NCBI GenBank assembly: GCA_031285625.1 | Contig: JAITVV010000073.1 | Location: forward strand, 50,357-114,356 | Reading direction: 5' to 3' | DNA: 64,000 bases | Source of the DNA: Prevotella sp. | GTDB lineage: Bacteria > Bacteroidota > Bacteroidia > Bacteroidales > Dysgonomonadaceae | In this document: one piece after another, positions 46,378 through 64,000 of the stretch | Position numbering within the stretch: position 1 is the stretch's first letter | Layout of the letters: every line of letters starts with the position of its first letter | Notes under the pieces: generated by a model | What the model saw: only the letters and a program-made list of their open reading frames with translations | Told to the model about the DNA's origin: nothing | Databases searched by the model: none | Position numbers and translations under genes: made by a program

Positions 46378-47784
46378 ATGAAACACTTTCTAGACGATAA
46401 TTTTGTACTGCAAAACGAAACAGCTAAACAACTATATCATGAGCATGCCAAGTCGTTACCAATCATAGATTACCATTGTCACCTTGATCCCAAGATGATT
46501 GCAGAAGATCATCAATTCGATAACCTGGGTGAAATATGGCTGGGAGGCGATCATTATAAATGGCGTGCTATGCGTACAAATGGTGTCGATGAAAGATTCT
46601 GTACAGGAAAAGATACCAGCGATTGGGAGAAATTTGAAAAATGGGCGGAGACCGTCCCTTATACGATGCGCAATCCACTTTATCACTGGACACATCTGGA
46701 ATTAAAAACAGCCTTTGGTGTAACCAAACTACTAAAACCAGAAACAGCACGTGAAATATTTGATGAATGTACAGCAAAACTTCGCACACCGGAGTTTTCA
46801 GCACGGGGATTGATGAAGCGTTACAATGTTGAAACAGTTTGTACAACAGACGACCCTATAGATACGCTTGAATACCATCTTTCGCTCAAGAAAGAAGGCT
46901 TTGAGATAAAAGTCCTTCCAACATGGCGTCCTGACAAGGCAATGGCCGTTGAAATTCCGGATGTATTCAGAGCATATGTAGAAAAATTATCAGAAGTATC
47001 CAATGTTCCTATCAGCAACTATGCAGACCTGATTGCAGCACTTCGCAAGCGCCATGATTTCTTTGCCAGTGTGGGTTGTAAATTATCAGACCATGGTATT
47101 GAAGAATTCTATGCAGAAGATTATACACAGAATGAGATAGATGCTATTTTCAATAAAGTATACGGTGGAAAAGAGTTGACACAAGAAGAAATCATAAAAT
47201 TCAAGTCAGCGATGTTAGTCGAAGGTGCCATCATGGACTGGGAAAAGGGTTGGACACAACAATTCCATTATGGGGCCATCCGTAATAATAATACACGCCT
47301 GTTTAAACAATTAGGGCCTGATACAGGTTTTGATTCTATAGGAGATTTTACTGTTGCAAAAGCAATGTCTAAATTTCTGAACAGATTAGACACTGATAAT
47401 AAATTAGCAAAAACAATAATATATAATCTCAATCCGAGAGATAATGATTTACTGGCAACCATGATAGGTAATTTCCAGGATGGTTCTGTTGCTGGAAAGA
47501 TCCAGTTCGGTTCGGGCTGGTGGTTCCTCGACCAAAAAACCGGTATGGAAGCTCAGATAAATTCGTTATCAAATCTTGGATTATTAAGTCGTTTTGTAGG
47601 TATGTTGACAGACTCGCGTAGTTTCTTATCCTACCCACGCCACGAATATTTCCGTCGCATATTATGTAATCTGATAGGTACAGATGTTGAACAAGGATTA
47701 CTTCCTTCATCGGAACTTCCTTTCCTTGGTAAATTGGTGGAAAATGTATCCTATTATAATGCGAAGGAGTTTTTTAAATTCTAA
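46378..47784 (+). CDS. uxaC: Uronate (glucuronate/galacturonate) isomerase
   Basis: 'PIIDYHCHL', 'GDHYKWRAMR', 'GSGWWF', 'GMLTDSRSFLSYPRHEYFRR'. Confidence 0.97.
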   Translation: MKHFLDDNFVLQNETAKQLYHEHAKSLPIIDYHCHLDPKMIAEDHQFDNLGEIWLGGDHYKWRAMRTNGVDERFCTGKDTSDWEKFEKWAETVPYTMRNPLYHWTHLELKTAFGVTKLLKPETAREIFDECTAKLRTPEFSARGLMKRYNVETVCTTDDPIDTLEYHLSLKKEGFEIKVLPTWRPDKAMAVEIPDVFRAYVEKLSEVSNVPISNYADLIAALRKRHDFFASVGCKLSDHGIEEFYAEDYTQNEIDAIFNKVYGGKELTQEEIIKFKSAMLVEGAIMDWEKGWTQQFHYGAIRNNNTRLFKQLGPDTGFDSIGDFTVAKAMSKFLNRLDTDNKLAKTIIYNLNPRDNDLLATMIGNFQDGSVAGKIQFGSGWWFLDQKTGMEAQINSLSNLGLLSRFVGMLTDSRSFLSYPRHEYFRRILCNLIGTDVEQGLLPSSELPFLGKLVENVSYYNAKEFFKF

Positions 47785-47809
47785 AGATCAATATTTTAAA
47801 ATAAAAACA

Positions 47810-48652
47810 ATGAAAACAATTATTGAAGAACGTTGGGGTACACATCCCGATGACGTAAAGAAGTATGACACGTCCCAATTACGAAAAGAATTCCTTGTGA
47901 AAAGGCTTTTCGAACCAGACTGCGTACTAATGACTTATACACACAACGACCGCCTTATAATAGGTGGAGCATTACCTGTAAAAGAATCATTAAAGTTAGA
48001 AACAGTAGACCTTATCCGCTCTGAATATTTCTGTGAAAGAAGAGAGTTAGGCATCATCTGTATCGAAGGCGAAGGTGTTGTCACCGTAGATGGTAAAGAC
48101 TATAACATGGGCTTCAAAGATGCTATTTATGTAGGGCGCGGAAGCAAAGAAGTTGTTTTCAAAAGCAATAGCGCTTTCAATCCGGCTAAATATTATTTCG
48201 CATCATCGCCTGCTCATAAAGAATACCCGACAGCACAAATTACGGCTGAGATGCGCCGTACCCGTGACCTGGGAGCTCCGGCAACATCTAATGAACGCTT
48301 ACTCAATCAACTTATCCTAAGCGAGATAGTACCTTGCTGTCAGCTACAGATGGGTATGACCGAGCTAAAAGAAGGCAGCGTATGGAATACAATGCCTCCA
48401 CATACACATTCCCGACGCATGGAAGCATATTTCTATTTTAAAGTACCTGCAGGGCAAGCCGTATGTCACTTTATGGGACAACCACAGGAAACACGCCATA
48501 TTTTTATGGGAAATGAACAAGCTGTAATCTCTCCGTCATGGTCGATTCATTCTGCTGCCGGAACAAGCAATTATACCTTTATATGGGCAATGTGTGGAGA
48601 AAACCTTGATTATGATGATATGGACACTTTTACTGCAGACAAATTACGTTAA
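47810..48652 (+). CDS. kduI: 5-dehydro-4-deoxy-D-glucuronate isomerase
   Basis: 'RRELGII', 'QLQMGMT', 'WNTMPPHTHSRRMEAYFY', 'SPSWSIH'. Likely ATG at 47810. Confidence 0.96.
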   Translation: MKTIIEERWGTHPDDVKKYDTSQLRKEFLVKRLFEPDCVLMTYTHNDRLIIGGALPVKESLKLETVDLIRSEYFCERRELGIICIEGEGVVTVDGKDYNMGFKDAIYVGRGSKEVVFKSNSAFNPAKYYFASSPAHKEYPTAQITAEMRRTRDLGAPATSNERLLNQLILSEIVPCCQLQMGMTELKEGSVWNTMPPHTHSRRMEAYFYFKVPAGQAVCHFMGQPQETRHIFMGNEQAVISPSWSIHSAAGTSNYTFIWAMCGENLDYDDMDTFTADKLR

Positions 48653-48698
48653 GCAGTAACATTATCTCAGAACATATTTATAATCAAACCAGAAAGAA

Positions 48699-49853
48699 AT
48701 GAAAAAGATATTTTACTTAATTATAGCAACTGTTTTCATGCTTTCGTGTTCGACTAAAGAGGCAAAGGTAACTATAGAGAATACCAGCAACTTTGATCGT
48801 TTAACAGAACTTGTGGAAATACCTATAGACAGTATTAAAGACAAAAAATCTGTTACAGATAGTTTAGTCTACCATGTTCAAACTGAAGACGGAGTAATAA
48901 TTCCATCACAAGTAACCTATGACAGGAAGATTATATTCCAACCTCAGTTGAAAGCCAACGAAACTAAATCTTTTATTATCACAACAGGCGATCCTCAGGA
49001 TTTCGAAGCAAAAACATACGGACGTTTCATTACTGAACGTAAAGATGATTTTGCATGGGAAAATGACCGTGTTGCATTCCGTATCTATGGGCCTGCATTA
49101 ATTGAAATAGATGGTCCCAGCAACGGCATTGATATATGGTATAAACGTACCAACGACCTTATTATAGACAAATGGTACAAGGACGATCTGGCCGGTGTTG
49201 CATCATACCATGACGATCATGGCGAAGGCCTCGATGATTACAAAGTTGGCCGTACTCTGGGTGCAGGTGCAATGGCTCCATATGTAAACAACAAATTGTG
49301 GCTGAATGAAAATTTTATATCAGAAGAGCTATTAGATAATGGCCCTTTGCGTACAACATTTAAGCTTACTTACAAAGATATGGATGTAGATGGTAAGACT
49401 GTTGCCGAAAACCGTACGATCTCTTTAGATGCAGGTTCTCAATTTTCAAAAATAGTTCAGGCTTATACTATCAAAGAGCCTATGACTGTTGCTGCAGGAA
49501 TTGTAAAAAGGGAAACAGGGGATTCCATTATCGCTTCTGTAGATAAAGGATATATCGTTTATGCAGAACCAAAAACTGATAAGGTATCTGGTATTTATTT
49601 AGGGCTTGTTTTTCCACAAGGTATTAATGAAAGTAAAACAGATACCTATGATGTTCTAAATGCAAAATCAAACAAAAAAGATACATACTCTCATGTACTC
49701 GCTATTGCGACCCAACAACCAAATATTCCGGTAACTTATTATGCAGGTTATGGCTGGTCTCAATTTGGATTTCCTACTGTTGCAGATTTCGAGAAATATA
49801 TTCAAAACTTTTCAGAAGAACTTAAACAACCATTAATAATAAAATATAAATAA
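48699..49853 (+). CDS. DUF4861-family lipoprotein
   Basis: Lipobox MLSC, 'ERKDDFAWENDRVAFRIYGPAL', 'YHDDHGEGLDDYKVGRTLGAG'. Confidence 0.85.
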   Translation: MKKIFYLIIATVFMLSCSTKEAKVTIENTSNFDRLTELVEIPIDSIKDKKSVTDSLVYHVQTEDGVIIPSQVTYDRKIIFQPQLKANETKSFIITTGDPQDFEAKTYGRFITERKDDFAWENDRVAFRIYGPALIEIDGPSNGIDIWYKRTNDLIIDKWYKDDLAGVASYHDDHGEGLDDYKVGRTLGAGAMAPYVNNKLWLNENFISEELLDNGPLRTTFKLTYKDMDVDGKTVAENRTISLDAGSQFSKIVQAYTIKEPMTVAAGIVKRETGDSIIASVDKGYIVYAEPKTDKVSGIYLGLVFPQGINESKTDTYDVLNAKSNKKDTYSHVLAIATQQPNIPVTYYAGYGWSQFGFPTVADFEKYIQNFSEELKQPLIIKYK

Positions 49854-49885
49854 CAAATACTAATTATTATACAAAGACTAAAACT

Positions 49886-50923
49886 ATGAAAAAAGTTGTC
49901 ACATTCGGGGAAATTATGCTACGCCTTGCAACTCCCGGATATCAGAGATTTATACAGTCAACCAACCTTAATGCCACATTTGGAGGAGGTGAAGCCAACG
50001 TTGCAGTTTCACTATCCAACTATGGTATTCCTACGGATTTTGTAACCCGGTTACCTAAAAATGATATAGCCGAGTGGTGTATCTCTGATTTGAGAAAATA
50101 CAATGTAGGAGTGAATAATATTCTCAGAGGAGGAGATCGTGTAGGTATCTATTTCCTTGAAACCGGAGCTGTAGCACGTGCCTCAAAGGTAGTATATGAC
50201 AGGGCAAACTCATCTATTGCCGATATAAAACCCGGAATGATCGACTGGAAAGAAGTCTTTAAAGATGCACAATGGTTTCATTGGACAGGAATCACTCCCG
50301 CTCTGTCCCAAGGTGCAGCAGATGCATGTCTGGAAGCTATAAAGGTTGCCAATGAAATGGGGGTAACAGTTTCGACTGACCTTAATTATCGTAAAAACCT
50401 ATGGAAATATGGCAAGACAGCTTCCGAGGTGATGCCGGCACTTGTTGAAGGGTGTGACATTATTTTAGGAAACGAAGAAGATGCGGAGAAGGTATTTGGC
50501 ATAAAACCCGAGGGCTTTGATGTAGCTCATACCGGAGGAGAAGTGAATGCCGCAGAATTTGAGTCGGTATGTACCCAAATGATGAAACGTTTTCCTCGTG
50601 CCAGTAAAGTAATAGTTACTCTTCGCGGTTCGATCAATGCAAACCATAACACATGGGGAGGATGTTTGTACTCGGATAAGCTTTATCAAAGTAAACGATA
50701 TGACATTACCCATATTGTAGACCGTGTAGGAGGAGGAGATTCGTTTATGGGAGGACTTATTTACGGACTTATCTCCTACCCTAGCGATGACCGGAAAGCA
50801 CTGGAGTTTGCTGTTGCGGCTTCTTGCCTGAAACACACTATATACGGGGATTTCAACCTTGTAACAGTTGCAGAAGTTGAAAACCTAATGAAGGGAGATG
50901 GATCAGGACGTGTTTCCAGATAA
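49886..50923 (+). CDS. kdgK: 2-keto-3-deoxygluconate kinase (PfkB family)
   Basis: 'FGEIMLRL', 'GGGEANVA', 'DLNYRKNLW', 'DRVGGGDSF'. Confidence 0.93.
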   Translation: MKKVVTFGEIMLRLATPGYQRFIQSTNLNATFGGGEANVAVSLSNYGIPTDFVTRLPKNDIAEWCISDLRKYNVGVNNILRGGDRVGIYFLETGAVARASKVVYDRANSSIADIKPGMIDWKEVFKDAQWFHWTGITPALSQGAADACLEAIKVANEMGVTVSTDLNYRKNLWKYGKTASEVMPALVEGCDIILGNEEDAEKVFGIKPEGFDVAHTGGEVNAAEFESVCTQMMKRFPRASKVIVTLRGSINANHNTWGGCLYSDKLYQSKRYDITHIVDRVGGGDSFMGGLIYGLISYPSDDRKALEFAVAASCLKHTIYGDFNLVTVAEVENLMKGDGSGRVSR

Positions 50924-50988
50924 ATAGCTGTAATCCTGTTTCAGTAATTTTATCTATATAATAAAGATAAACAGTATTTTATAGAAGA

Positions 50989-51038
50989 AAAAGTAACACT
51001 ATAAAAACACCTGAAAAGTGTCACCTTTGTCACTTTTT
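50989..51038 (+). repeat. Dispersed intergenic element, copy 3
   Basis: AAAAGTAACA-N20-TGTCACCTTTGTCACTTTTT between kdgK and kduD. Confidence 0.65.
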
Positions 51039-51142
51039 AACAGAATAGCTACTGATTATTAATAATATAGATCATTCATAAGATGTTACTTTTATCGGTT
51101 ATATCTAAAATATTGATTCAGATTTTAAGAATAGAATAAAAA

Positions 51143-51928
51143 ATGATAAAAAATCAATTTTCGTTAGAAGGAAAAGTAGCCCTAATCACAGGAGGAACCT
51201 ATGGTATTGGTATGGCAATGGCTAAAGCTTTAGGAAGAGCAGGAGCCAAAATCGTATTCAATGCCAGAAGTAAAGACCAGATAGAAAAGGCTATTGAAGA
51301 CTATAAAGCAGATGGATTTGAAGTATACGGTTATCAATGTGATGTAACTGTAGAAGCACAGGTACAGGAAATGGTTGCTGATATATCGAAAAAAATAGGT
51401 GATGTAGATATTTTAGTAAATAATGCAGGAATCATTAAACGTATACCTGCACTGGAGATGTCTGTAGAAGAATTCAGCCAGGTAATAGACATAGACCTCA
51501 TAGGTCCCTTTATTGTATCTAAGGCTGTAGCTCCCGGAATGATAAAAAAAGGCTCCGGAAAAATCATCAATATCTGTTCTATGATGAGTGAACTGGGACG
51601 TGAAACAGTATCGGCCTATGCAGCAGCCAAAGGAGGACTGAAGATGCTTACCAAGAATCTGGCATGCGAATGGGCTGAACATAATATACAAGTAAATGGG
51701 ATAGGCCCCGGATATATTGCAACCCCTCAAACTGCCCCTTTACGTACGGCTGGACATCCGTTTAATGATTTCATTATATCCAAGACTCCGGCTGCTCGCT
51801 GGGGGACACCCGAAGATCTGGAAGGTCCGGTTGTATTCCTGGCTTCGCAGGCATCTGATTTTATTAACGGACACATATTATATGTAGACGGAGGTATACT
51901 TGCATATATTGGTAAACAACCAAAATAA
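51143..51928 (+). CDS. kduD: SDR, gluconate 5-dehydrogenase family; likely 2-dehydro-3-deoxy-D-gluconate 5-dehydrogenase
   Basis: TGGTYGIG, NNAG, YAAAKGG. Context with kduI and kdgK. Confidence 0.85.
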   Translation: MIKNQFSLEGKVALITGGTYGIGMAMAKALGRAGAKIVFNARSKDQIEKAIEDYKADGFEVYGYQCDVTVEAQVQEMVADISKKIGDVDILVNNAGIIKRIPALEMSVEEFSQVIDIDLIGPFIVSKAVAPGMIKKGSGKIINICSMMSELGRETVSAYAAAKGGLKMLTKNLACEWAEHNIQVNGIGPGYIATPQTAPLRTAGHPFNDFIISKTPAARWGTPEDLEGPVVFLASQASDFINGHILYVDGGILAYIGKQPK

Positions 51929-52032
51929 TTTATAATTAATACTTAACAGCAAGTAGGTATGAAAACTAAAACCATTGTTTTTATTGATCTAAAAAACATA
52001 CCTGCTTGCCTGTTTGTAAAACTAACAGTTAG

Positions 52033-52707
52033 ATGGCACGATTTTCAAGAATAAAAGCCTGTCAGGTAATGGCAGAAACAGGAATGGTACCTGTATTTTA
52101 CCACAACGACCTGGAAACATCTAAACAAGTAATCAAGGCTTGTTATCAGGGAGGTGTAAGAGCATTTGAATTTACCAACAGGGGTGATTTTGCACATGAA
52201 ATATTTGGAGAACTGAATAAATGGGCAGCAAAAGAATGCCCGGATATGATATTGGGTATCGGATCGGTAGTAGATGCCGGTACTGCATCTTTGTTTTTAC
52301 AGCTTGGGGCCAATTTCGTTGTAGGTCCCCTATTAAATCCCGACATCTTCAAAGTGTGTAACCGTAGGCAAGTAGCGTATATTCCCGGTTGCGGATCTGT
52401 ATCCGAAATCGGTTACGCACAAGAGTTGGGTGCCGAGGTGGTGAAAGTATTTCCGGCAGGAAATGTCGGAGGCCCGTCATTTGTGAAGAATGTAAAAGCA
52501 CCGATGCCATGGTCGAGTATTATGGTAACAGGAGGTGTAGAACCTACCGAAGAAAATCTTACAAAATGGATTGATGCAGGTGTTACCTGTGTGGGTATGG
52601 GTTCAAACTTATTTCCCAAAGATGTGATTGCTGCAAAAGACTGGGGTAAGATAACACTAATGTGCAAAGATGCACTTGCAATAATAGCAAAAGCGAAAAC
52701 TAAATAA
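52033..52707 (+). CDS. eda: KDPG/KHG aldolase
   Basis: 'AFEFTNRG', 'GANFVVGP', 'VKVFPA', 'MVTGGV'. Confidence 0.93.
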
Positions 52708-52713
52708 AAATCT

Positions 52714-54303
52714 ATGAATAATACCGGAAAAACCAAAATGACAAATTACAGATGGACAATCTGTGCCATGCTGTTCTTTGCCACTACGATCAATTATCTG
52801 GATAGGCAGGTACTATCCCTTACATGGAAAGATTTTATCTCACCAGAGTTTCATTGGACAAATGACCATTATGGAACTATAACTGCGCTCTTCTCTATAT
52901 TTTATGCTGTCAGCATGCTCTTTGCCGGAAAATTTGTAGACTGGATGGATACTAAAAAAGGATTTCTCTGGGCTATTGGTATCTGGTCTTTTGGAGCTAT
53001 CATCCATGCCTTCTGTGGTATTGCCACGTCAGGTATCGTTGCCGGAGAATGGTTTGTCGGATTCGAAGGAGCCCGTGAAGCCATAGCAATGGTGAGTAAT
53101 GTAGGGAAGGTAGCGAGTGTCAGTGTTGTGCTCTTCATATTTGCCCGCTTGATACTGGCTATAGGAGAAGCCGGGAACTTTCCTGCAGCAATTAAGGCTA
53201 CTGCAGAATACTTCCCCAAAAAGGACAGAGCCTTTGCTACCAGTATATTTAATGCAGGAGCAACAGTCGGAGCACTTGCTGCTCCGGTTACAATTCCTGT
53301 TATTGCAAAATTCTGGGGTTGGGAAATGTCATTCATTATCATTGGTGCGCTTGGATTTGTATGGATGGGATTCTGGGTTTTCATATATAAGAAACCGGAA
53401 GTACACCCGAAAGTAAATAGTGCAGAATTAGCTTATATACAATCAGATCAAAGTTCTACCAACCCTGAAGAAGAAAAAGTAGAGGCAGTACAAGCAAAAA
53501 GTAACAAAATATCTTTTAAGGATGCATTCAGGTATAAACAAACCTGGGCTTTTGCCATTGGTAAATTTATGACAGACGGCGTATGGTGGTTCTTTTTGTT
53601 TTGGGCTCCGGCATATCTAAGTTCCGTATATGGAATTAAATCATCCGACCCTCAAGGACAATTAGCTATTTTTGTTCTTTATGCAATCACACTACTCTCA
53701 ATTATTGGAGGATGGCTTCCATCTTACTTTGTAGAAAAGAAAGGAATGAATCCGTATGCAGGCCGTATGAAAGCCATGCTAATATTTGCATTCTTCCCGC
53801 TATTGGCATTACTGGCTCAACCTTTGGGCGGTTATTCATATTGGATTCCTGTTATTATAATCGGTATTGCAGGAGCAGCACATCAGGCATGGTCTGCAAA
53901 TATATTCTCCACTATAGGTGACATGTTCCCTAAGAAAGCAATTGCCACTATCACAGGTATCGGAGGAATGGCAGGTGGTTTTGGTTCCTTCCTTATAAAC
54001 AAAGGTTCGGGAGCGCTATTCGATTTTACTCAAAAGAATTGGAGTACAGTCAATGGAGAAGCTTTTCTCGATAAATACCCTCAGTTTTTGAATACTGAAA
54101 CAGCTACAGCCTTTCTGAAAGAACAGAAGGTCAGTAATCTTGAAGAATTCCTAAAAATGTTATCAGCTTCGGGTGATACTGTAGTAGATGGCATCAATTC
54201 CGGTTATATGATTATATTCTCTATCTGTGCTGTGGCATACCTGATAGGATGGGTTATAATGAAAGCATTAGTACCTAAATATAAGCCGATTACAGATCTA
54301 TAA
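52714..54303 (+). CDS. exuT: MFS hexuronate transporter (ExuT-like)
   Basis: 'INYLDRQVLS', 'GEAGNFPAAIKA.AEYFP', 'FNAG', 'DGVWWFFLFW', 'AHQAWSAN'. Confidence 0.88.
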   Translation: MNNTGKTKMTNYRWTICAMLFFATTINYLDRQVLSLTWKDFISPEFHWTNDHYGTITALFSIFYAVSMLFAGKFVDWMDTKKGFLWAIGIWSFGAIIHAFCGIATSGIVAGEWFVGFEGAREAIAMVSNVGKVASVSVVLFIFARLILAIGEAGNFPAAIKATAEYFPKKDRAFATSIFNAGATVGALAAPVTIPVIAKFWGWEMSFIIIGALGFVWMGFWVFIYKKPEVHPKVNSAELAYIQSDQSSTNPEEEKVEAVQAKSNKISFKDAFRYKQTWAFAIGKFMTDGVWWFFLFWAPAYLSSVYGIKSSDPQGQLAIFVLYAITLLSIIGGWLPSYFVEKKGMNPYAGRMKAMLIFAFFPLLALLAQPLGGYSYWIPVIIIGIAGAAHQAWSANIFSTIGDMFPKKAIATITGIGGMAGGFGSFLINKGSGALFDFTQKNWSTVNGEAFLDKYPQFLNTETATAFLKEQKVSNLEEFLKMLSASGDTVVDGINSGYMIIFSICAVAYLIGWVIMKALVPKYKPITDL

Positions 54304-54896: not shown

Positions 54897-54903
54897 TATA
54901 TAA

Positions 54904-54932
54904 AAAATCCCGCATATTTCTACCGGGATTTT
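54904..54932. terminator. Bidirectional terminator between GNAT and the VWA gene
   Basis: AAAATCCCG...CGGGATTTT. Confidence 0.65.
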
Positions 54933-54950
54933 CTATAAGCTTCTTAAAAG

Positions 54951-56111
54951 TTAGATACCTTCATATTTATGTTCGAATTTTTTCAGATCCATACCTTTCA
55001 GAGCTCCCTCTACTAATTCAGGGAGTCGATCAGGAGTACAGGCGAAACATGCTATGCCTAATTTACTTATTTCTTTTGCCAGATTAGGATCATAGTCGGG
55101 TTTTCCCCTATCTGACAGAGCTAACAATGTTATCACTTTAACACCATCAGCATGCATTTCAGACAGACGCCTTAATAGTCCTGCACGTACCCCTCCTTCA
55201 TAGAGATCAGAGATAAGGATAAACATCGTCTTGCGAGGATTCTGAATCAGGCTCTGGCAATATGTTACAGATTTGTTGATATCTGTTCCTCCTCCCAGCT
55301 GAACCCCGAAAAGCATGTCTACCGGATCGTTCTTACATAATTCAGTCAGATCAGTTATTTCTGTATCGAAAGCTACTACATGCGTATCCAATGCAGGCAT
55401 ACTGGCAAATATAGATCCCATAACAGAAGAATAGACTATTGAGTCACACATAGATCCACTCTGGTCTATATCCAGAATCACAGTCCACGATTTTTGTTTC
55501 TGGCTCCGTTCGAAGAAATAGAATTTTTCAGGGATAAGTCTTTTCTTTTCAGTATCATAATTCTTCAGGTTGCGATTGATAGTACGCTTCCAGTCTGTTG
55601 CTGAGAAATTACTGATAGGTGAATGTGCTTTTTTATTCAGAGCACCGGTTACAGCCTTACGCAGATCCTGTTCCATCCGTTTCATTATTTCATCTACCAC
55701 CTCTTTCACCAACTGGCGTGCAGTTTCCTTCGATTTTTCAGGTATCTGTCCCTTCAATGCCATCAAGGTACCTACCATAGAGATATCTGGTTGTACATTC
55801 TTCAATGTTTCTGGCTCCAGAAGAAGCTTTGTCAAGCCCTTTCGCTCAATGGCATCAGCCTGTATTACACTTACCACATCCTGAGGAAAGAATGTACGCA
55901 CATCAGTAAGCCATTTAGCCAGATTAGGAGCGGATGGTCCCAGGCCAGCACCCTTTCTTCCTCCTCCTTTTCCTGAGCTATCACTATCATAAATAGCAGC
56001 CAGAGCGGCATCCATTATACTTTCTTTCTCACTTAACCCTACATTGCCAAATGCCTTGGAATCTCCTCCAAGGATCAACCTCCACCGGGTCATATTTTGA
56101 TTATCTGTCAT
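54951..56111 (-). CDS. VWA domain protein (CoxE/YehP-like)
   Basis: N-terminal 'RWRLILG', MIDAS 'DIDQSGSM', 'GGGTDI', 'ISDLYEGG'. Confidence 0.9.
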   Translation of the reverse strand: MTDNQNMTRWRLILGGDSKAFGNVGLSEKESIMDAALAAIYDSDSSGKGGGRKGAGLGPSAPNLAKWLTDVRTFFPQDVVSVIQADAIERKGLTKLLLEPETLKNVQPDISMVGTLMALKGQIPEKSKETARQLVKEVVDEIMKRMEQDLRKAVTGALNKKAHSPISNFSATDWKRTINRNLKNYDTEKKRLIPEKFYFFERSQKQKSWTVILDIDQSGSMCDSIVYSSVMGSIFASMPALDTHVVAFDTEITDLTELCKNDPVDMLFGVQLGGGTDINKSVTYCQSLIQNPRKTMFILISDLYEGGVRAGLLRRLSEMHADGVKVITLLALSDRGKPDYDPNLAKEISKLGIACFACTPDRLPELVEGALKGMDLKKFEHKYEGI

Positions 56112-56125
56112 TGTTTATCATTTTA

Positions 56126-58420
56126 TCAGAAATCGAATTCAAAGTCATTTAGTTCATCCAGTTTCTCGGTTTCCTGCTCTGTCAACTCAGCTTGCAATAT
56201 CTCGGCTGTAGCTTCTGCACCTGTACCCCATATATCGCCCAAGAGTTCGGCAATACTATTTTTCTGATTGGGTTCAAAGTCTCCAAAAGCTCTACGCAGA
56301 AATACCACTGAACGGAAAAACTCATCTTCATCCAATGCCTGTACATAGCTATCCAGTTCGCGCCACAGCGTAACACGGGATAATAACGCATAGCGGTTAC
56401 GACCCGAAAGACCTTCAAACCATCCGGCTCCTATATCTGCAGGAATACCAGGAGATAATCGCCGCGAAACTTCTTTTGCACAGTCATCTTCATCAGCCAA
56501 ATTATGCTCCAATAGCAGAGAAAATGCGACACCGGATAATTTCGGATTAAGATCGTCTCTCCATGCCAGTTTTTGCAACTCCTGTTGCCATATATTTACA
56601 TCTACCTGATCGTATTGCTCTTGTGAGATAAGGTCCATAACATTGATAGCTTTTGCTATCTCTGATGAGGATTTCTCGTCACAGGATGAAGCATCCGTTA
56701 ATAAAAGAGAAGCTCTTAAGAACAACTGTTGCATAATAGGTATGAGTGGTTCCAGATTGAACTGACGTATGCTTCCATACTGTATAAGGTATGAAAGTTC
56801 CTGAGCAGCATAAGCCACTTCCCTGAAATTATTTGAATCTACAAGGAGACTTTGTAATGTAGATACAGCATTGTCAAAAAGCTTAGACAAATTACACTCA
56901 CATGCCTGACGGATAATTTTGGCAGCCTGTGATATATCTGTACAATTCTCCAATTGTTCTTTTAGTTCAAAAGCCGCCGCAGTTTCTAAAGTTTCACCTT
57001 TTAAGTTGGCCTCTACAATTTCAATCTCTGTTTCGGGTGTCCAACGCAAGATCCATTTCTCAGCCCATGAAGCAGAATCTTGGGATACTGAAAGCTTTTG
57101 GGCGAATTTTATTTTTAAGACTTCCAGGCGATGCAGAAAAGTAGAGCGATTCAGGTCAATAAAGGCGGCCTCTTTCGTTTTTACCTTTATATTCTCCCTC
57201 AAATCGAGACTTAAATCCTGTGCTACTGCAGATTTATATTGAGTCAGTTTTAAGCGCTTCAGTTCCTGATTCATATCTTCCTGTACAGGAGTCTGACTTA
57301 CGCCTTCCGGCAAGCTTCCTATTGCAGTACCTATATCTACCATATTGATAGCTTCAGCAACAGGAGATAGTTCTCCTCCACCAAAACAAGTAATAACGGC
57401 ATCATGTAGATCTTTGAGTACAGGCAGAGAGCCATTCCTCAAAGAAGTGAGCGAGTTAGCAAGCCTGACGGCTTCTATTACACTGGCAGATGATGCATTG
57501 TTTCCCTTTTGCCTGAGCTCTCCGGCTATCATCGAAAGATATATGGATGGCAAGCTGGTCAAAGCATTATCCTGAAGGCACTTCCACATCAATTCAAAAT
57601 AGAACGGAGCCTTATTGCCTGCACCATAACCTGTACGGCTACTTAACCGATGATAAGAATACGGCATCAAAGTCATCCTTGAATCTGCACGGGGTATATT
57701 CTTCAAGTCCTCATCAGACATTGGAGGTAATTCGCTCAATATCCCCTTTACATGGTATGCTCCGACTATAACAACAATATCTTCAGGTTTGAATCCTTCA
57801 TTAATAGCCCGTTGTATTTCCCGGCGCATATAAGCTTCGCGTATCAGATTGTAAGAATAATCATAAGGCACAGCCTCATATTCTTTGTCTACAACCATAT
57901 CGCGCATTTCACCGGTTTGCAAACTCAAACCTTCACGAAAAGTATCTTTCTGCAGATTATGTTCAAAGTTGCGCTCCCAATAGCTTTCGTAATCTTCCTC
58001 TCCATAATAAGATGCCAGCTTATCATAAAGTCCGTTATGAAAAGTATAGAATTCTTTCTGCTCCTCATCCGGCAATTCACGAGAGCGTTCTTGACGTATC
58101 TTTAAGAAAATATTACAAGGTAGATCTATGAAACGAACTTCTGCTTTTTTCTTTACACCCCAACATACTGCCTGATATTCGGGCGAATAGCTGGCAAAGG
58201 GATATAATATTGTTTCTATTGGTAATTCGGTAGTGTATGCAAGAAATGCAACAGGAGGTTTCACTTTCTTATTTGCCAATTCAAGTAGTATTTCTGTTCC
58301 ATCCGATGGTCCTTCAATAAGAATACATTTAGGCTTTTTCTCTTCTAAATATTGTATCAAATGATAGGATGCCCCCGGTGAAAGATGCCTGACTCCGAAT
58401 ATGTTTAAATCTTTATTCAT
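56126..58420 (-). CDS. DUF5682 / YehM-like protein
   Basis: 'IFGVRHLSP', 'ILIEGP', 'YSPEYQA', 'REAYM', 'VGAYH', 'SRTGYGAG', 'STFLHRL'. Confidence 0.85.
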   Translation of the reverse strand: MNKDLNIFGVRHLSPGASYHLIQYLEEKKPKCILIEGPSDGTEILLELANKKVKPPVAFLAYTTELPIETILYPFASYSPEYQAVCWGVKKKAEVRFIDLPCNIFLKIRQERSRELPDEEQKEFYTFHNGLYDKLASYYGEEDYESYWERNFEHNLQKDTFREGLSLQTGEMRDMVVDKEYEAVPYDYSYNLIREAYMRREIQRAINEGFKPEDIVVIVGAYHVKGILSELPPMSDEDLKNIPRADSRMTLMPYSYHRLSSRTGYGAGNKAPFYFELMWKCLQDNALTSLPSIYLSMIAGELRQKGNNASSASVIEAVRLANSLTSLRNGSLPVLKDLHDAVITCFGGGELSPVAEAINMVDIGTAIGSLPEGVSQTPVQEDMNQELKRLKLTQYKSAVAQDLSLDLRENIKVKTKEAAFIDLNRSTFLHRLEVLKIKFAQKLSVSQDSASWAEKWILRWTPETEIEIVEANLKGETLETAAAFELKEQLENCTDISQAAKIIRQACECNLSKLFDNAVSTLQSLLVDSNNFREVAYAAQELSYLIQYGSIRQFNLEPLIPIMQQLFLRASLLLTDASSCDEKSSSEIAKAINVMDLISQEQYDQVDVNIWQQELQKLAWRDDLNPKLSGVAFSLLLEHNLADEDDCAKEVSRRLSPGIPADIGAGWFEGLSGRNRYALLSRVTLWRELDSYVQALDEDEFFRSVVFLRRAFGDFEPNQKNSIAELLGDIWGTGAEATAEILQAELTEQETEKLDELNDFEFDF

Positions 58421-58467
58421 ATTGATGTGCTAAGTGTTAGAATTAATTGATATCGGTACATTTAGAA

Positions 58468-59568
58468 TCAACCATTCATTTCACTGCAACTATTATAAAG
58501 ACCTCTCCAGTCGGCACCACGCTTTTTCATTACATTTTCCAGGTATTCTTTCCATACCATTTTATCTTTATCTTCATCCTTTACAACAGCACCTTGAAGC
58601 CCTGCTGCCAAATCATTATCTGTGATGTTTCCATTGCCAAAACTAGCGGCTAACGCCATACTATTTGTGATCAAAGAAATAGCTTCGGCAGTAGATATTA
58701 CTCCACTTGGTGATTTTAGTTTCTGTTTTTCGTCTAGAGTAATACCTTGTCTTAATTCGCGGAACACAGTAACGATTTTTTCTACAATCTCACGGTTTGG
58801 CAAGGTAGCTTTCAATCTGTAATTACCCGCTATTTCAGCAACACGTTTATTAACGATATTTACCTCTGTTTCCAAATTGGCTGGAGAAGGCAGCACAATA
58901 ATATTAAAACGACGTTTAAGTGCCGATGACATATCATTTACACCCCTGTCACGTGTATTTGCTGTTGCTATAATTGCAAAACCACGTTGGGCTGGTAGTT
59001 CTTTAGATAACTCAGGAATAGCAATCGTTTTTTCTGACATGATAGAAATTAAAGCGTCTTGTACCTCTGACGCACAACGTGAAATTTCTTCAAAGCGGGC
59101 AATACTACCACCTTCCATAGACCGCATTATAGGGCTTTTTATCAGAGCAGCGTCAGATGGCCCATTTGCAAGCAACATGGCATAGTTCCAGGAATAGCGA
59201 ATATGTTCTTCACTCGTTCCGGCAGTACCTTGTACCACTTTGCCTGAATCTCCACAAATAGCTGCAGATAGATTCTCAGAAAGCCATGATTTTGCAGTTC
59301 CCGGCTCGCCGATTAGTAATAATGATCTGTCAGTAAGTAATGTGGCAATAGCGATTTCTACAAGACGATCATGGCCGATATATTTAGGAGTAATATCAAC
59401 GCTTCCAGCTTTACCACCAACAATAAATTTTAATACAGCTTTAGGAGACAAATGCCAGCCTACAGGTTTTTCTTCATTTTTATCTTCATCTTTCAGTGCA
59501 TCTAATTCGTGTGCATAAAGTAATTCGGCTGGTAACCTCAAAACATCTTTTTTGTCATCTTTTGCCAT
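58468..59568 (-). CDS. MoxR-clade AAA+ ATPase (YehL-like)
   Basis: Walker A GEPGTAKS, Walker B ARFEE, 'ATANTRDRGVNDMSSALKRRF'. Confidence 0.92.
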   Translation of the reverse strand: MAKDDKKDVLRLPAELLYAHELDALKDEDKNEEKPVGWHLSPKAVLKFIVGGKAGSVDITPKYIGHDRLVEIAIATLLTDRSLLLIGEPGTAKSWLSENLSAAICGDSGKVVQGTAGTSEEHIRYSWNYAMLLANGPSDAALIKSPIMRSMEGGSIARFEEISRCASEVQDALISIMSEKTIAIPELSKELPAQRGFAIIATANTRDRGVNDMSSALKRRFNIIVLPSPANLETEVNIVNKRVAEIAGNYRLKATLPNREIVEKIVTVFRELRQGITLDEKQKLKSPSGVISTAEAISLITNSMALAASFGNGNITDNDLAAGLQGAVVKDEDKDKMVWKEYLENVMKKRGADWRGLYNSCSEMNG

Positions 59569-59624
59569 TTGGTGTAAAGTTTTATAGTTTATAATTTGCT
59601 TATGTTTAATTATTGTACCTCAGC

Positions 59625-59749
59625 AGATTGTACAATCTTATATATTCCTTATAGTTTTGTACAAAAATTGTCATGCCAAATATATGAATAATGATCGTCT
59701 AAACCAACGGTAGATATTACAACAAACAGAAATATTTTATATATATTCG
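59625..59749. promoter_or_regulatory. Divergent promoter region with two TTGTACAA-core palindromes
   Basis: AGATTGTACAATCT at 59625-59638 and TTTTGTACAAAA at 59655-59666. Minus-strand TATATTTG at 59677-59684 and plus-strand TATATTCG at 59742-59749. Confidence 0.5.
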
Positions 59750-59774
59750 CAAATATCTTTAACAAAACAAGTTT

Positions 59775-61208
59775 ATGAATATCACTACAAAACTAATTGA
59801 GGAGCTGGCTCCCAATGCGGCAGCGGCAAAAAATGGCCGGGATCTTGTCAGCAAAAACAAATTCTCAAATCTCAAAAAATCAGAAGACGATACTGTTATA
59901 TGGGGAGAATGTGCCGGCAGTGGCAAGAATCCATATATGTGTTCTGTTGATTTTATTGATGAGAATAATCCCATAAGCAGGTGTAATTGCCCCAGCAGGC
60001 AGTTTCCATGTAAACATGGATTAGGATTAATGTACGCTTATGAAAAAGGGTTAACATTCAACTCTTCCGATATTCCTGAGGATATTTTATCAAAACGAGA
60101 AAAAATAGAAAAGAAACAGGAAAAAAAGACTCAAGAGAAGGAAACAATAAAGGAGAAAGCAGAAAAGCCAAAAAAAATAAATAAGGCAGCTGTTATAAAA
60201 AAAGCAGAGGCCCAACTTACCGGAATAGATCTGGCAGAAAAACTATTAAGGAATATTATTCAGATGGGGTTATCTTCTGTAGATGCACAATCCAGAAGAA
60301 CTTTTTCTACACAAATAAAAGAACTGGGTAATTACTATATCAATGGAATACAAACAGCATTTAATAATCTGATGCTGGAACTCGATGATGTGGAGAATGA
60401 CAAATATACCAGAGTCATAGATCAGATAAATTTTATTTCAGCACTACTAAAAAAGAGTAAAGATTATTTAAACTCACGTAAAGAAAATCCGGAAGCTGCT
60501 CCAGAACTAAATTCTGCGATTGAAGAACAAATTGGCTATGTATGGAAGCTTGTTGAATTGATGGAGAATGGACTTTGGGAAGAAAATGCTGAGATAATTC
60601 AATTGTCATTCAATAATTATGACGATCCTGCCCGCAAAGAGTATATCGATCAGGGATACTGGATAAACCTGAAAACAGGAAAAATATATTCAACTAAGAA
60701 TTATCGTCCTTACAGGGCTGCAAAATATATAAAAGAAGATAATAGTATATTTGACGTATTACAAACACCCGAACTATTTATTTATCCGGGAGACCTTAAT
60801 CCCCGCGCACGTTGGGATTCGGCAGGAAGACGTGACGTTACACAAAATGATATCACAACTATTATTAATTATGCCTCATCCAACTATGCAGATTTAGTAA
60901 AAACAATAAAGGGAAGTATAAAGAATCCATTGATGGATAAGAACCCTGTAGCATTAATAAAACTACATAAATCCTACGTTAATGGAGAACACCTTGTGGT
61001 TGAAGATGAGCAAGGCAATGTCTTGACTGTAATGGATATGCCTTATGAGGAAATGAAAGTAGAACATTTCCTTAAATCGGTTATACCCTCCGAACCGAAA
61101 GGCTATGCACTGCTGGTGAAAATAAACAATGATGTTGAGTCTGGCTTATTTTCGGTACAGCCACTTTCATTAATTACCCCGGAAAAGATAATCCGTTTGC
61201 TTTATTAA
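59775..61208 (+). CDS. SWIM zinc-finger protein (YehQ-like)
   Basis: 'WGECAGSGKNPY...CNCPSRQFPCKH' is a SWIM CxC...CxH motif. Confidence 0.88.
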   Translation: MNITTKLIEELAPNAAAAKNGRDLVSKNKFSNLKKSEDDTVIWGECAGSGKNPYMCSVDFIDENNPISRCNCPSRQFPCKHGLGLMYAYEKGLTFNSSDIPEDILSKREKIEKKQEKKTQEKETIKEKAEKPKKINKAAVIKKAEAQLTGIDLAEKLLRNIIQMGLSSVDAQSRRTFSTQIKELGNYYINGIQTAFNNLMLELDDVENDKYTRVIDQINFISALLKKSKDYLNSRKENPEAAPELNSAIEEQIGYVWKLVELMENGLWEENAEIIQLSFNNYDDPARKEYIDQGYWINLKTGKIYSTKNYRPYRAAKYIKEDNSIFDVLQTPELFIYPGDLNPRARWDSAGRRDVTQNDITTIINYASSNYADLVKTIKGSIKNPLMDKNPVALIKLHKSYVNGEHLVVEDEQGNVLTVMDMPYEEMKVEHFLKSVIPSEPKGYALLVKINNDVESGLFSVQPLSLITPEKIIRLLY

Positions 61209-61227
61209 TCCCCTAAAATGACACATT

Positions 61228-63060
61228 ATGAGAATACAACCATTATATGATCTGCAACAAGAAGTAAACCGCCTCTTTATTGCAGGCAGTAAATTTGCAA
61301 AAAACGACCCCCGACTACTAAAGTTGATACCTATATTTGAAAAGCTAGGAGAAAAGGCTCCGGTATTTAAAAAACTAGCAAGAGATATACAGGACTTAAC
61401 CAAGGCCGATGCTTTAGAATCATCAGAAAAGCTAACAGCTATCAGTACCCTACTCTACTCTGTACTTTACACGCAGGGAGAAATGACCGAAACTGATGTG
61501 AAGAAAAAAGATCAAACACCACATTTTGATATAAATGATATTACAACACTATATTCATATTTGGAGGTGAAGCCGGCAATTAAAGCCTTATCGGAAAGTA
61601 ATCAGGGAAGAATGGAAGTAGTTGAAGACGCCCGAAAAAGAGGAATATTTAAAGATTTCAGGACATATGCTTATCTGGATTTGGCTTTAGGCGATAAATA
61701 CTCAGAACTAGCCGAACTTGCATACACGATTATAAAAGAGGACGCAGGAAAAACAATCATTCCAATCCTGGTTGAGAATTTCAGCTATGAAGGACGCAAA
61801 GAAGATTCCCGAAGATTACTATTACTTCATCACTTTGGCTATGAAGGAGTACCTTTTATGATAAAAAAAATAATGGAAGAGTCTGCAGTTAATCTACAAG
61901 CTGCTGCTATCACTATTTTAAGTGAAGATCTAAAAAATGAAGATTGGATTATAGAACTCACCGGAGATAAAAATAAGGTTGTTCGTGAAGCCGCATATAT
62001 GGGCTTAGCAAAACTGAATACAGAAAAAAGCCAGGATAAATTAAAAGAGTTGTACATAAAGAACCGGACTAAAAACAAAACTAACTTCGAACTACTCGTA
62101 TATGCTCTCCAATCAACTGACATGAGCTTCTTCTTCAATGAGGTATTTCAGCAAGTACGTGAAAGCTTCAACGAACTGTTAGCCATCAACAAAGATGCGG
62201 ATAATAAAAACTTTGTGGCTGCAATGGAGAATTTCCAGTCAAACATTTCGGTATTAAATTATAAAGACAAACCGGAAGTATATGATTTCCTTTCGGAAGT
62301 GCTTCTAAGCGATAATTACAATAAACTGATAAAGGATAAGAAAAATCTGCTGGCTGGTTATGCAAACAACGTATCTCAAACTATAATATCCGTATTACGT
62401 ACACTGGATAATAAAAAGACATTGGCTTTCTATAAAAAGATAGCGGATAAAATGCCTGATACAGAATGGAAGATACCATTCTATAAGAGGTACTTATATG
62501 ATAGTGTTACTGCTAAATCGAAAGATATCTACGACACATTCATAAATGCATATAATAAGAACTATATTGATATTAATGACCTTATCAAAGCATATAGCAG
62601 TAGTTACTCATATTATGCTAATGTTTCGCAGATAGATGATATCAAGGTAATTGATAAACGTTGGATCGACAGATTATATGAGCATATAGAAAAAGCTAAG
62701 AGTATGAAATATGACGAAATGAGAATGCTCGATATCATAGATGCTTATGAACCTGTGCCATGCGATAAGTTGAATAAGCTATTAAAAAAGGCAAGTACTA
62801 AAGTTGAAGTATATACCTCTGTAGATATCTTCAATAAAATGATGGCCAGAGATATCCCTGATAAATTCGATGCAATATATTCTGTTGTTAAGAATTATAC
62901 AAAAGGCTCTAATTCATACTATTTCTCAAGGTTAGCCGAAGCTGATTTCTGGGAAAAATTTCCAAAAGAATATATACCGAAGTTTAAAGACTTACATGCT
63001 AAAACGAAGCTTGGGTTATTTGAAACAATTGTAGATAAAATCCAACTAGGAAACGGATAA
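61228..63060 (+). CDS. HEAT/armadillo-like repeat protein
   Basis: All-helical character with HEAT-like 'DKNKVVREAAYMGLAKL'. Starts 19 bp after the SWIM gene. Confidence 0.7.
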   Translation: MRIQPLYDLQQEVNRLFIAGSKFAKNDPRLLKLIPIFEKLGEKAPVFKKLARDIQDLTKADALESSEKLTAISTLLYSVLYTQGEMTETDVKKKDQTPHFDINDITTLYSYLEVKPAIKALSESNQGRMEVVEDARKRGIFKDFRTYAYLDLALGDKYSELAELAYTIIKEDAGKTIIPILVENFSYEGRKEDSRRLLLLHHFGYEGVPFMIKKIMEESAVNLQAAAITILSEDLKNEDWIIELTGDKNKVVREAAYMGLAKLNTEKSQDKLKELYIKNRTKNKTNFELLVYALQSTDMSFFFNEVFQQVRESFNELLAINKDADNKNFVAAMENFQSNISVLNYKDKPEVYDFLSEVLLSDNYNKLIKDKKNLLAGYANNVSQTIISVLRTLDNKKTLAFYKKIADKMPDTEWKIPFYKRYLYDSVTAKSKDIYDTFINAYNKNYIDINDLIKAYSSSYSYYANVSQIDDIKVIDKRWIDRLYEHIEKAKSMKYDEMRMLDIIDAYEPVPCDKLNKLLKKASTKVEVYTSVDIFNKMMARDIPDKFDAIYSVVKNYTKGSNSYYFSRLAEADFWEKFPKEYIPKFKDLHAKTKLGLFETIVDKIQLGNG

Positions 63061-63067
63061 GAATAAG

Positions 63068-63087
63068 GGGGCAGATAGTTCTGCCCC
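63068..63087. terminator. Terminator between convergent genes
   Basis: GGGGCAGA-TAGT-TCTGCCCC. Confidence 0.7.
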
Positions 63088-63094
63088 TCATTTA

Positions 63095-64000
63095 TTATAT
63101 AACTCCCATCCTTATTGCATCCATAACATTTGCAGGAGGACGCTTATTTTCAAATTCTTTCTTCATAAAATCCATATAAACAGCTACATGATCAAAAAAT
63201 TGATAATAGCCTTTGCATAAGTAGTTTAGTCCGGGCTCACCTGTTGGAGTCTTGCTAAACCTGTTCTTCGGACATTCTCCATTGCAAGCAAACAGATATT
63301 TACATTCCTTGCATTGAGTTGGTAAAGAATCATACTTATCTTGTCCAAATTTTTGCTGTTCCTTACTATAGAGCATCTCAACCAGTGACTTAGAATGTAT
63401 ATTCCCTAATTTATACTGAGGAAATACGAAGTGATCACAAGAATACACATCCCCGTTAAACTCCATTACTCCCGCATGTCCACAGGTTCGCGCCATCGAG
63501 CATATGCCTGGTTGCCCTCCTGCCCAATTTGCTAATATCGCATCAAAGAGCTGGATATAGTATTGTCCGACATCGTTTCGTACCCATTCGTCAAAGATCG
63601 TACACAGGAAATTACCCCATTGTTCGGGAGTTACCGAAAACTCAGCCATTTCCAGATCTCCACCTTCTTCCACAGCTGCCAGATGCCTGCCATCTGTATG
63701 ATTATAAATACGTTCCACAATTGGAGTAAACTGTATATAACGGCAACCTATTTCTTTAAAGAAGTGATAAAAATCTAAAGGATAATCTGCATTAAAATCA
63801 TTGACTACAGCAAGGGCATTCCATTCTACCTGATGCTTATTCAATAACTGAATACCTTTCATTACATTTACAAAAGAAGGCCGTCCCTGTTTGTTACGCC
63901 TGTATTCGTCATGAAACTCCTGCGGTCCGTCAATAGAAACTCCGACCAGCCAGTTATTATCCTTGAAAAATTTACACCAGTCATCTGTCAATAAAGTACC
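63095..64000 (-). CDS. chuR: Anaerobic sulfatase maturase (radical SAM/SPASM), 5' part outside the window
   Basis: 'VGVSIDGP', 'YIQFTPIVE', SPASM cysteines 'CSMARTCG..GDVYSCDHFV..CKECKYLFACNGECPKNR'. Confidence 0.9.
   Translation of the reverse strand, partial: GTLLTDDWCKFFKDNNWLVGVSIDGPQEFHDEYRRNKQGRPSFVNVMKGIQLLNKHQVEWNALAVVNDFNADYPLDFYHFFKEIGCRYIQFTPIVERIYNHTDGRHLAAVEEGGDLEMAEFSVTPEQWGNFLCTIFDEWVRNDVGQYYIQLFDAILANWAGGQPGICSMARTCGHAGVMEFNGDVYSCDHFVFPQYKLGNIHSKSLVEMLYSKEQQKFGQDKYDSLPTQCKECKYLFACNGECPKNRFSKTPTGEPGLNYLCKGYYQFFDHVAVYMDFMKKEFENKRPPANVMDAIRMGVI

Follow-up and report, generated by a model that had tools for sequence, protein, structure and literature searches.

A Divergently Arranged Copy of a Five-Gene YehL-Type MoxR Module and Its Possible Role as a Remodelling Machine

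Introduction

What do five tightly packed genes do together when they encode a MoxR-type AAA+ ATPase, a protein of the DUF5682 family, a VWA-domain protein, a SWIM zinc-finger protein and a HEAT-repeat solenoid? This question is raised by a locus in a 64,000-nucleotide stretch of DNA, hereafter the window, which corresponds to positions 50,357 to 114,356 of contig JAITVV010000073.1 from a Prevotella sp. assembly (GCA_031285625.1) that GTDB places in the Dysgonomonadaceae. A first-pass annotation of the window proposed a self-contained cytoplasmic machine in which the SWIM and HEAT proteins are sensors or adaptors, the AAA+ and VWA proteins form the remodeller, and the DUF5682 protein is the enzymatic effector. 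It further suggested that this could be an undescribed stress-response or anti-phage system.

Several pairs of MoxR ATPases and VWA proteins are known to act on a defined client, including CbbQ/CbbO, RavA/ViaA, NorQ/NorD and CoxD/CoxE. We conclude, with a probability of about 0.6, that the window carries a complete copy of a widespread five-gene YehL-type MoxR module that would operate as a cytoplasmic, ATP-driven remodelling machine. As described below, parts of the first-pass proposal survive in this conclusion, whereas its two-operon layout and its claim of novelty do not.

Results

The five genes constitute one self-contained unit that travels together across phyla. We collected 80 related loci, with relatives at 47% identity or more, by scanning one genome per species with an alignment of eight DUF5682 sequences. 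The SWIM, HEAT and AAA genes are all found in 63 of the 68 loci that extend at least 5 kb upstream of DUF5682, and the VWA gene is found in 68 of the 73 that extend at least 1.5 kb downstream. When the open reading frames (ORFs) of the 80 loci are clustered, the five families are present in 79, 70, 66, 65 and 62 loci, while the next neighbouring family appears in just 11, such that no sixth conserved gene emerges from these clusters. The linkage of the SWIM and HEAT genes to the AAA-DUF5682-VWA trio, on which the first-pass proposal hinged, therefore holds in other genomes. All five genes can be located by tblastn in 61 of the 80 loci, where they share one strand in every case (61/61) and one order in all but one (60/61). 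The sole exception is a Myroides locus (L057) in which HEAT precedes SWIM.

The distribution of this unit is patchy, and its HEAT component is highly variable; the first-pass annotation had proposed to check for both properties. DUF5682 genes are present in 12 of 34 other Dysgonomonas genomes, in none of 26 other genera of the order, and, among 300 further Bacteroidota genomes with a completeness of at least 90%, in seven. Paenibacillus, Clostridia, and metagenome-assembled genomes (MAGs) of a Spirochaetota and a Limnohabitans species also harbour close relatives, with identities of 47-58% for DUF5682 and 70-83% for the ATPase, which argues for horizontal spread. Among mobile elements, DUF5682 is found in 44 of 72,556 plasmid records and in one of 50,697 phage records, the latter being an unverified 14-kb contig. 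When each component in the 61 full loci is compared with its window counterpart, median identity falls from 75% for AAA through 63% for VWA, 54% for DUF5682 and 44% for SWIM to 34% for HEAT. HEAT is the fastest-evolving component, and outside Bacteroidota approximately 364 of its 610 residues align.

The conserved layout of the relatives also changes how the window itself is read. In the 12 Dysgonomonas genomes that carry DUF5682, we inspected 20 kb around this gene. Ten of these congeners have the order SWIM-HEAT-AAA-DUF5682-VWA on a single strand, and the other two lack some of the genes in the stretch. Because the relatives keep this single-strand order, the divergent form in the window stems from one inversion, which has split the module into two back-to-back transcription units in this Dysgonomonas lineage. 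The first-pass description of two operons that share a divergent promoter is replaced by a local inversion of what is a single operon elsewhere. The inverted piece would be either the promoter-SWIM-HEAT segment or the AAA-DUF5682-VWA trio, and no convincing inverted repeats are seen at the ends of the inversion. The rearrangement is not an assembly artefact, because the spacer between the two units is crossed by contigs from two other public runs: one (X2 record 3) spans positions 56115-63300 with 34 differences, and another (X4 record 11) spans 56372-63300 with 195 differences.

In other respects the locus is as the first-pass annotation had it (Table 1). The five ORFs are each confirmed by the ORF list and by a Pfam match, all five genes are intact, and the genes within each unit are separated by 14 nt (VWA-DUF5682), 47 nt (DUF5682-AAA) and 19 nt (SWIM-HEAT). 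Hairpins are present on both sides. That on the HEAT side is detected by the terminator scan and is common to HEAT and a converging radical-SAM gene, whereas that on the VWA side is recognised as an inverted repeat (arms of 14 nt at 54899-54912 and 54924-54937, a loop of 11 nt, and a flanking A run and T run); it is not listed by the scan because its loop exceeds the rule that the scan applies. When read from the translations, none of the five N-termini carries a hydrophobic signal-like stretch, and all five proteins look cytoplasmic. The contig ends just after the module.

Table 1. Features of the five-gene locus in the window, and related loci with an adjoining RNA-repair cassette
Feature	Window position or loci	Strand	Remarks
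VWA (CoxE-type) protein	54951-56111	minus	386 aa; Pfam VWA_CoxE PF05762, 1.2e-46
DUF5682 protein	56126-58420	minus	764 aa; Pfam DUF5682 PF18934, 9.2e-147
MoxR-type AAA+ ATPase, YehL kind	58468-59568	minus	366 aa; Pfam AAA_5, 9.6e-36
SWIM zinc-finger protein	59775-61208	plus	477 aa; Pfam SWIM, 1.2e-4 (above cut-off)
HEAT-repeat solenoid protein	61228-63060	plus	610 aa; Pfam HEAT_2, 1e-7
Divergent spacer between AAA and SWIM	59569-59774		206 nt
Hairpin between GNAT gene and end of VWA gene	54899-54937		likely two-way terminator
G+C-rich hairpin 3' of HEAT	63067-63088		terminator scan, both strands; likely two-way terminator
TAGTTTTG, candidate Bacteroidetes -7 box for SWIM-HEAT	59652-59659	plus	putative, picked by eye
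TATATTTG, candidate -7 box for AAA-DUF5682-VWA	59677-59684	minus	putative, picked by eye
RNA-repair cassette upstream of operon	L066, L067, L068, L071, L073, L078, L086, L096, L103	same strand	9 loci
RNA-repair cassette downstream of operon	L070, L082	same strand	2 loci

The spacer probably holds promoters for both transcription units. The -7 element of Bacteroidetes promoters has the consensus TAnnTTTG, and one candidate box is present for each direction; a box of this kind (...CTTATAAATTTGTAT...) also lies upstream of SWIM in the congeners. In one RNA library (X5), a contig stops at 59674 and another begins at 59677, both within the spacer, and DNA-like contigs run across it. These ends fall within about 10 nt of the back-to-back starts predicted from the candidate boxes, which is a faint hint of their use that comes from contigs of a single study in which DNA carry-over is possible. 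RNA-library contigs (X5 and X8, from that same study and with the same caveat) cover parts of all five genes. The spacer also contains three copies of TTGTAC between 59612 and 59667 (attgtacc, attgtacaat and tttgtacaaaa). One copy is a palindrome, TTGTACAA, that overlaps the candidate plus-strand box, and these repeats could be an operator.

In most Dysgonomonas relatives (L026-L034, L056 and L063, and the congener loci L015-L025), unrelated co-directional ORFs interrupt the operon. The insertions lie between AAA and DUF5682, where gaps reach 1.0 kb, and between DUF5682 and VWA, where they reach 2.7 kb; the window copy is compact at both junctions. Examples of inserted ORFs include those for an IS200-like Y1 transposase-type protein, DUF2314, GNAT, TonB_C and lipoprotein-like proteins, and for proteins that have no family.

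The features expected of a MoxR motor and its VWA partner are present, as the first-pass annotation had recognised. The ATPase carries a Walker A motif, GEPGTAKS, and a Walker B motif, R-F-E-E, both of which are invariant in its relatives and are also common to E. coli YehL. The window protein is 40% identical to YehL, with GxPGTAKS and the glutamates E160 and E161 invariant. The three NCBIfam matches of the ATPase are all far under their cut-offs (the best, MadB ATPase, scores 41.7 bits against 475). NCBIfam has no family for the other four proteins. In the VWA protein, the metal-ion-dependent adhesion site (MIDAS) residues D216, S218, S220, T276 and D302 are all present and form invariant DxSxS, T and D columns in the alignment of relatives. 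The N-terminal region of this protein (RWRLILG...) is also highly conserved. A complex prediction that combined full-length DUF5682 with VWA residues 155-386 returned scores of 0.00 and 0.00, which gives no answer either way.

This pairing of an AAA_5 MoxR ATPase with a VWA protein that has an intact MIDAS is shared with CbbQ/CbbO, RavA/ViaA, NorQ/NorD and CoxD/CoxE, and by analogy the module and these client-bound pairs likely follow the same motor-and-adaptor logic. Unlike those pairs, however, the module has three additional fixed partners (DUF5682, SWIM and HEAT), and none of the genes near it can be recognised as that of a client.

The DUF5682 family is large: at E ≤ 0.001 it takes in 3001 clusters defined at 50% identity. 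The window protein matches positions 3-709 of the 727-position Pfam profile. Its predicted model is confident, with a mean predicted local distance difference test (pLDDT) score of 92, and comparison of this model with approximately 48,000 PDB representatives divides the protein into three parts. Residues 1-233 form a ChaN/HopBA1-like alpha/beta domain, for which the matches include 8bqs_DQ (Z 10.6, 194 residues aligned), ChaN 2g5g (Z 8.0, 162 aligned) and HopBA1 5t09 (Z 7.2, 148 aligned). Residues 287-363 form a helical bundle that resembles an AAA lid and matches the lid of BchI (Z 9.6), and residues from about 430 to 760 form a helical solenoid.

ChaN, a haem-binding protein, and HopBA1, an effector, have been grouped with EreA, TraB/PrgY/GumN and TIKI in one superfamily whose members are mostly metal-dependent hydrolases. 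Residues H12, E36, R194, G220 and H223 do not vary among 57 diverse DUF5682 sequences. Their counterparts in TraB/GumN proteins encoded by the same genomes are H21, E47, R227, G249 and H252, which are likewise invariant and keep this order at comparable distances, such that DUF5682 follows the TraB/GumN arrangement GxxH...E...R...GAxH. Taken with the predicted fold, this His-Glu-Arg-His set suggests that DUF5682 is a metal-dependent hydrolase, either a protease or an esterase. The first-pass view of DUF5682 as an enzyme gains an enzyme-like domain from these model-based matches. Unlike EreA, ChaN, TraB and TIKI, DUF5682 fuses this domain to roughly 530 further residues and places it inside a MoxR operon. 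Sequence searches of the PDB gave no match with the DUF5682 profile and nothing useful with that of TraB, and in a protein atlas the N-terminal part of DUF5682 scored 0.77 only, which is under the level of a lead.

The SWIM protein carries the zinc-binding pattern C70-x-C72...C79-x-H81 and the motif GxCxGSG, both of which are invariant in relatives. In its predicted model (pLDDT 88), residues 1-99 form a SWIM domain like that of ZSWIM8 (9rwz_M; Z 11.0, root-mean-square deviation 2.8, 97 aligned). This is followed by a four-helix bundle (residues 133-243) and, at residues 268-474, by beta-rich domains that give weak OB-like matches, for example to the MCM N-terminal domain (Z 7.4-7.5). ZSWIM8 serves as substrate receptor in a cullin-RING ligase (PDB 9rwz), where its SWIM domain goes together with a large helical partner, as in the module. 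The likeness is limited to this one domain, however, and the module lacks ubiquitin-type machinery.

The HEAT protein is a solenoid over its full length, and HEAT_2 is recognised in all 22 family members searched. Systems of the vWA-MoxR ternary type, which take part in biological conflicts together with VMAP proteins, were reportedly described by Kaur et al. in 2020; among the 22 HEAT family members, one has a VMAP-M1 match, at E 0.013, and in the window a Pfam bpMoxR match that spans 48 residues only reaches 27.5 bits against a cut-off of 27. The protein atlas places the HEAT protein with HEAT clusters and gives a weak DUF5724 lead, at 0.85 only.

A plasmid of Hymenobacter sp. HDW8 (L121, 2198-5227) encodes a 1009-residue fusion of a SWIM-protein homologue with DUF5691. 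The SWIM half of this fusion matches the SWIM family of the window with a probability of 99.5% in hhalign (E 1.8e-22, 387 columns). The fusion is good evidence that the products of the first and second genes of the module act together. The HEAT family matches the DUF5691 half with a probability of 1.2%, which does not demonstrate homology between the two. On the 3' side of the fusion lie genes for AAA, a 203-residue ORF that has no family, DUF5682 and VWA, with PDDEXK nuclease and recombinase genes downstream.

The first-pass annotation likened the locus to yehL, yehM, yehP and yehQ of E. coli, and this likeness is borne out. In addition to YehL, E. coli K-12 has a DUF5682 protein, YehM, that is 24% identical to that of the window over its full length (E 3e-33), and a VWA protein, YehP. 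The SWIM zinc finger of YehQ lies at the equivalent position (residues 68-91), although the rest of that protein does not align. The E. coli cluster also includes a fifth, large helical protein, as does the module. Its annotated order is yehI (DUF4132), yehK, yehL (MoxR), yehM, yehP (VWA) and yehQ (SWIM), such that, unlike in the relatives of the window, the SWIM gene is last and the gene for the large helical protein, YehI, is first. The WGR genes yehF and yehH lie upstream. The HEAT protein of the window is not similar to YehI or YehQ, and none of the 22 HEAT family members matches DUF4132. Plasmid records provide further arrangements, with SWIM-DUF5691-AAA-DUF5682-VWA in Rhizobium and Methylosinus and DUF4132-AAA-DUF5682-VWA-SWIM in Iodobacter.

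The order in the window's relatives is also that of ddrTUVWX in Deinococcus deserti. As reported by Blanchard et al. (2017; PMC5552922), this is a five-gene operon with a SWIM gene first and a CoxE-like VWA gene last, whose genes of 1302, 1491, 1107, 2187 and 1179 nt encode products of 433, 496, 368, 728 and 392 residues, compared with 477, 610, 366, 764 and 386 residues in the window. The operon is under IrrE/DdrO control with a radiation-response motif, and is induced 4- to 15-fold by radiation in an IrrE-dependent manner; we found no such control in the window. The second gene of ddrTUVWX is probably of the DUF5691 type seen in Rhizobium and Methylosinus rather than HEAT_2. The claim that the window holds an undescribed system does not stand, as the gene cluster is already known as the YehL subfamily and also agrees with ddrTUVWX in gene order and sizes.

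Directly upstream of the module, at 41744-54303, the window carries a set of genes for pectin and hexuronate utilisation that includes pectinesterase, a GDSL esterase, GH43, a BD-FAE esterase, UxaC, KduI, DUF4861, a PfkB kinase, an SDR protein, KDPG aldolase and an MFS transporter. None of the genes that flank the module in the window (GNAT, MFS and radical SAM) recurs at a congener locus.

In Paenibacillus, a recurrent neighbour is found. At 11 of the 80 loci, all of which are from this genus, the operon adjoins an RNA-repair cassette, RlaP-RtcB-AAA-KptA, encoded on its own strand (Table 1). The last gene of the cassette is of the KptA/Tpt1 type, a TatD-like ORF is added in one locus (L066), and in seven loci a gene with HD and OB domains follows VWA. 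A search of six Paenibacillus loci with Rfam gave no matches. Upstream of SWIM, at -61 to -98, the pattern AGGAAA-N11-15-TGGAA occurs in 20 of 33 Paenibacillus regions and in none of 27 others (mean for shuffled sequences, 0.045). This two-box element can be written as AAAGGAAAT-N~12-GTGGAAA, as at -62 in L065 and -75 in L070, and it presumably resembles a promoter of the sigma-H type.

Discussion

If the module is an ATP-driven remodelling machine, its components could divide the work as follows. The MoxR ring would supply force, and the N-terminal region of the VWA protein would couple the ring to a partner held at the MIDAS site, as VWA proteins or domains do in CbbQ/CbbO and Rea1. DUF5682 would contribute its ChaN/EreA/TraB-like domain as a metal-dependent hydrolase, whether protease or esterase. 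Target selection would fall to the SWIM protein, by way of its ZSWIM8-like receptor domain, together with the HEAT solenoid, which evolves fastest. The first-pass proposal of a SWIM/HEAT adaptor, an AAA/VWA remodeller and a DUF5682 effector is partly retained in this scheme; its support lies in the unity of the five genes, their kinship to yeh and the enzyme-like domain.

Several observations weigh against this interpretation. A profile-profile comparison (hhalign) of DUF5682 with TraB/GumN gives a probability of 0.4% and aligns 14 columns at GAxH alone, so that DUF5682 has no significant sequence-profile match to TraB/GumN. A Foldseek search of the PDB with the whole DUF5682 model returns nothing at E ≤ 0.001 and only helical-repeat noise, and the Z values of 7-10 obtained for the fold are in a range that the tool's own note calls middling. 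Five termite-gut or related loci have DUF5682 with some or all of its partners missing within 5-10 kb. In two termite-gut Prevotellaceae MAGs (L046 and L058), DUF5682 is intact at 67-70% identity and is flanked by housekeeping genes, with AAA, SWIM, HEAT and VWA all missing from the surrounding 8-10 kb; L043, L045, L047, L048 and L050 are similar but lie on short contigs. DUF5682 may persist alone in these MAGs, and may not always need its partners. The equivalence with ddrTUVWX is a match of order, sizes and two annotations in PMC5552922, rather than of sequences. Our literature searches, which took in no supplements beyond those of PMC5552922, found no experiment on any member and no function for DUF5682 or for yehL, yehM, yehP and yehQ, which turned up in gene lists only. 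Two further points, concerning control sequences and the RNA-repair cassette, bear most directly on the question of what the machine would act upon and are taken up next.

The best hints favour a response to nucleic-acid damage or stress over phage defence. One specific explanation, which we regard as possible though doubtful, is that DNA or RNA damage induces the module, which then clears or remodels a damaged nucleoprotein complex alongside RtcB-like repair enzymes. In PMC5552922, ddrTUVWX is radiation-induced under IrrE/DdrO, and Table 2 of that report also includes an RtcB family protein among the genes induced by radiation. The Paenibacillus cassette (nine loci upstream and two downstream) and the downstream HD and OB gene point in the same direction, as do the WGR and DUF4132 genes that adjoin the E. 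coli yeh cluster and the OB-like matches of the SWIM C-terminal part. Against this, the OB-like match is inside the noise range of the tool, the neighbours in the window are sugar-metabolism genes, and the RtcB link is seen in one genus only, so that its 11 examples are kin and not independent. Moreover, the regions upstream of SWIM in the subfamily lack the known SOS boxes. Among 60 such regions, the Cheo box is seen once, and two Bacteroidetes motifs taken from PMC8565304, CTAA-N5-TTAG and GGA-N5-TCC, are seen in zero and one, respectively. No SOS-type box is visible by eye in the spacer of the window.

Phage defence or another form of conflict, which the first-pass annotation had raised, is in our judgement unlikely. 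The HEAT and SWIM pair would sense an invader protein, and the MoxR-VWA motor would then activate DUF5682 as a hydrolase effector. The patchy distribution described above is what such a system might have, as are the close relatives across phyla and the rapid divergence of HEAT relative to AAA. Some plasmid copies adjoin insertion sequence elements, toxin-antitoxin genes or type I restriction-modification genes, and in one locus (L083) a Shedu gene lies directly upstream. However, a search of PADLOC-DB 2.0 (2023) finds no family for four of the five proteins and only a weak match, to mad8 (E 8e-4), for AAA. We also scanned the neighbours at 24 diverse loci, using the 150 ORFs nearest the core, one per cluster, from 224 ORFs of at least 150 residues; exclusion of nine long or antisense ORFs left 141 proteins. 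PADLOC matches were obtained for 13 of these, mostly to generic kinase, helicase and AAA domains, and the Shedu gene is the sole clear defence signature, such that co-location with defence genes is seen at one locus in 24. The near absence of DUF5682 from phage records and the pectin and hexuronate context of the window also count against a defence role.

A narrower version of the damage hypothesis, which we consider unlikely, is a bacterial receptor-motor-hydrolase pathway that acts on damaged RNA-protein complexes. In this scheme the SWIM and HEAT proteins would recognise a damaged ribonucleoprotein, the MoxR-VWA motor would extract a component in the manner of Rea1/Midasin on pre-ribosomes, the TraB/TIKI-like domain of DUF5682 would cleave that component, and the RNA would be handed on to RtcB-type repair. 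If true, this pathway would account both for the RtcB, RlaP and KptA neighbours in Paenibacillus and for the co-induction of RtcB in Deinococcus after irradiation.

Finally, systems such as CoxD/CoxE, NorQ/NorD and the AAA+/VWA chelatases insert cofactors or metals, and it is very improbable that the module is a chaperone of this kind with DUF5682 as a ligand-holding large subunit: the VWA protein belongs to the CoxE family, and DUF5682 matches ChaN at its N-terminus and the lid of magnesium-chelatase BchI in its middle bundle, but no conserved client-enzyme or tetrapyrrole gene adjoins the module in the 80 loci, the His/Glu/Arg/His set is a better fit to the superfamily's hydrolase branch than to ChaN, and we know of no cofactor-maturation system with SWIM and HEAT partners.

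Concluding Remarks

The window does not add a new system, but rather a real, intact and rearranged copy of a known kind. What can be used from its analysis is that the module is one unit across phyla, that SWIM and a second protein can be fused, and that HEAT is the variable part. To these can be added the catalytic-looking residue set of DUF5682, the missing SOS boxes in the subfamily, and the recurrent RNA-repair cassette in Paenibacillus, whose position beside the operon is a new lead. DUF5682 is a large family with a member in E. coli K-12, and a MoxR motor and a VWA adaptor accompany it, even though our literature searches gave no function for it. Together, these facts turn the question of what the module does into a few concrete experiments in laboratory strains.

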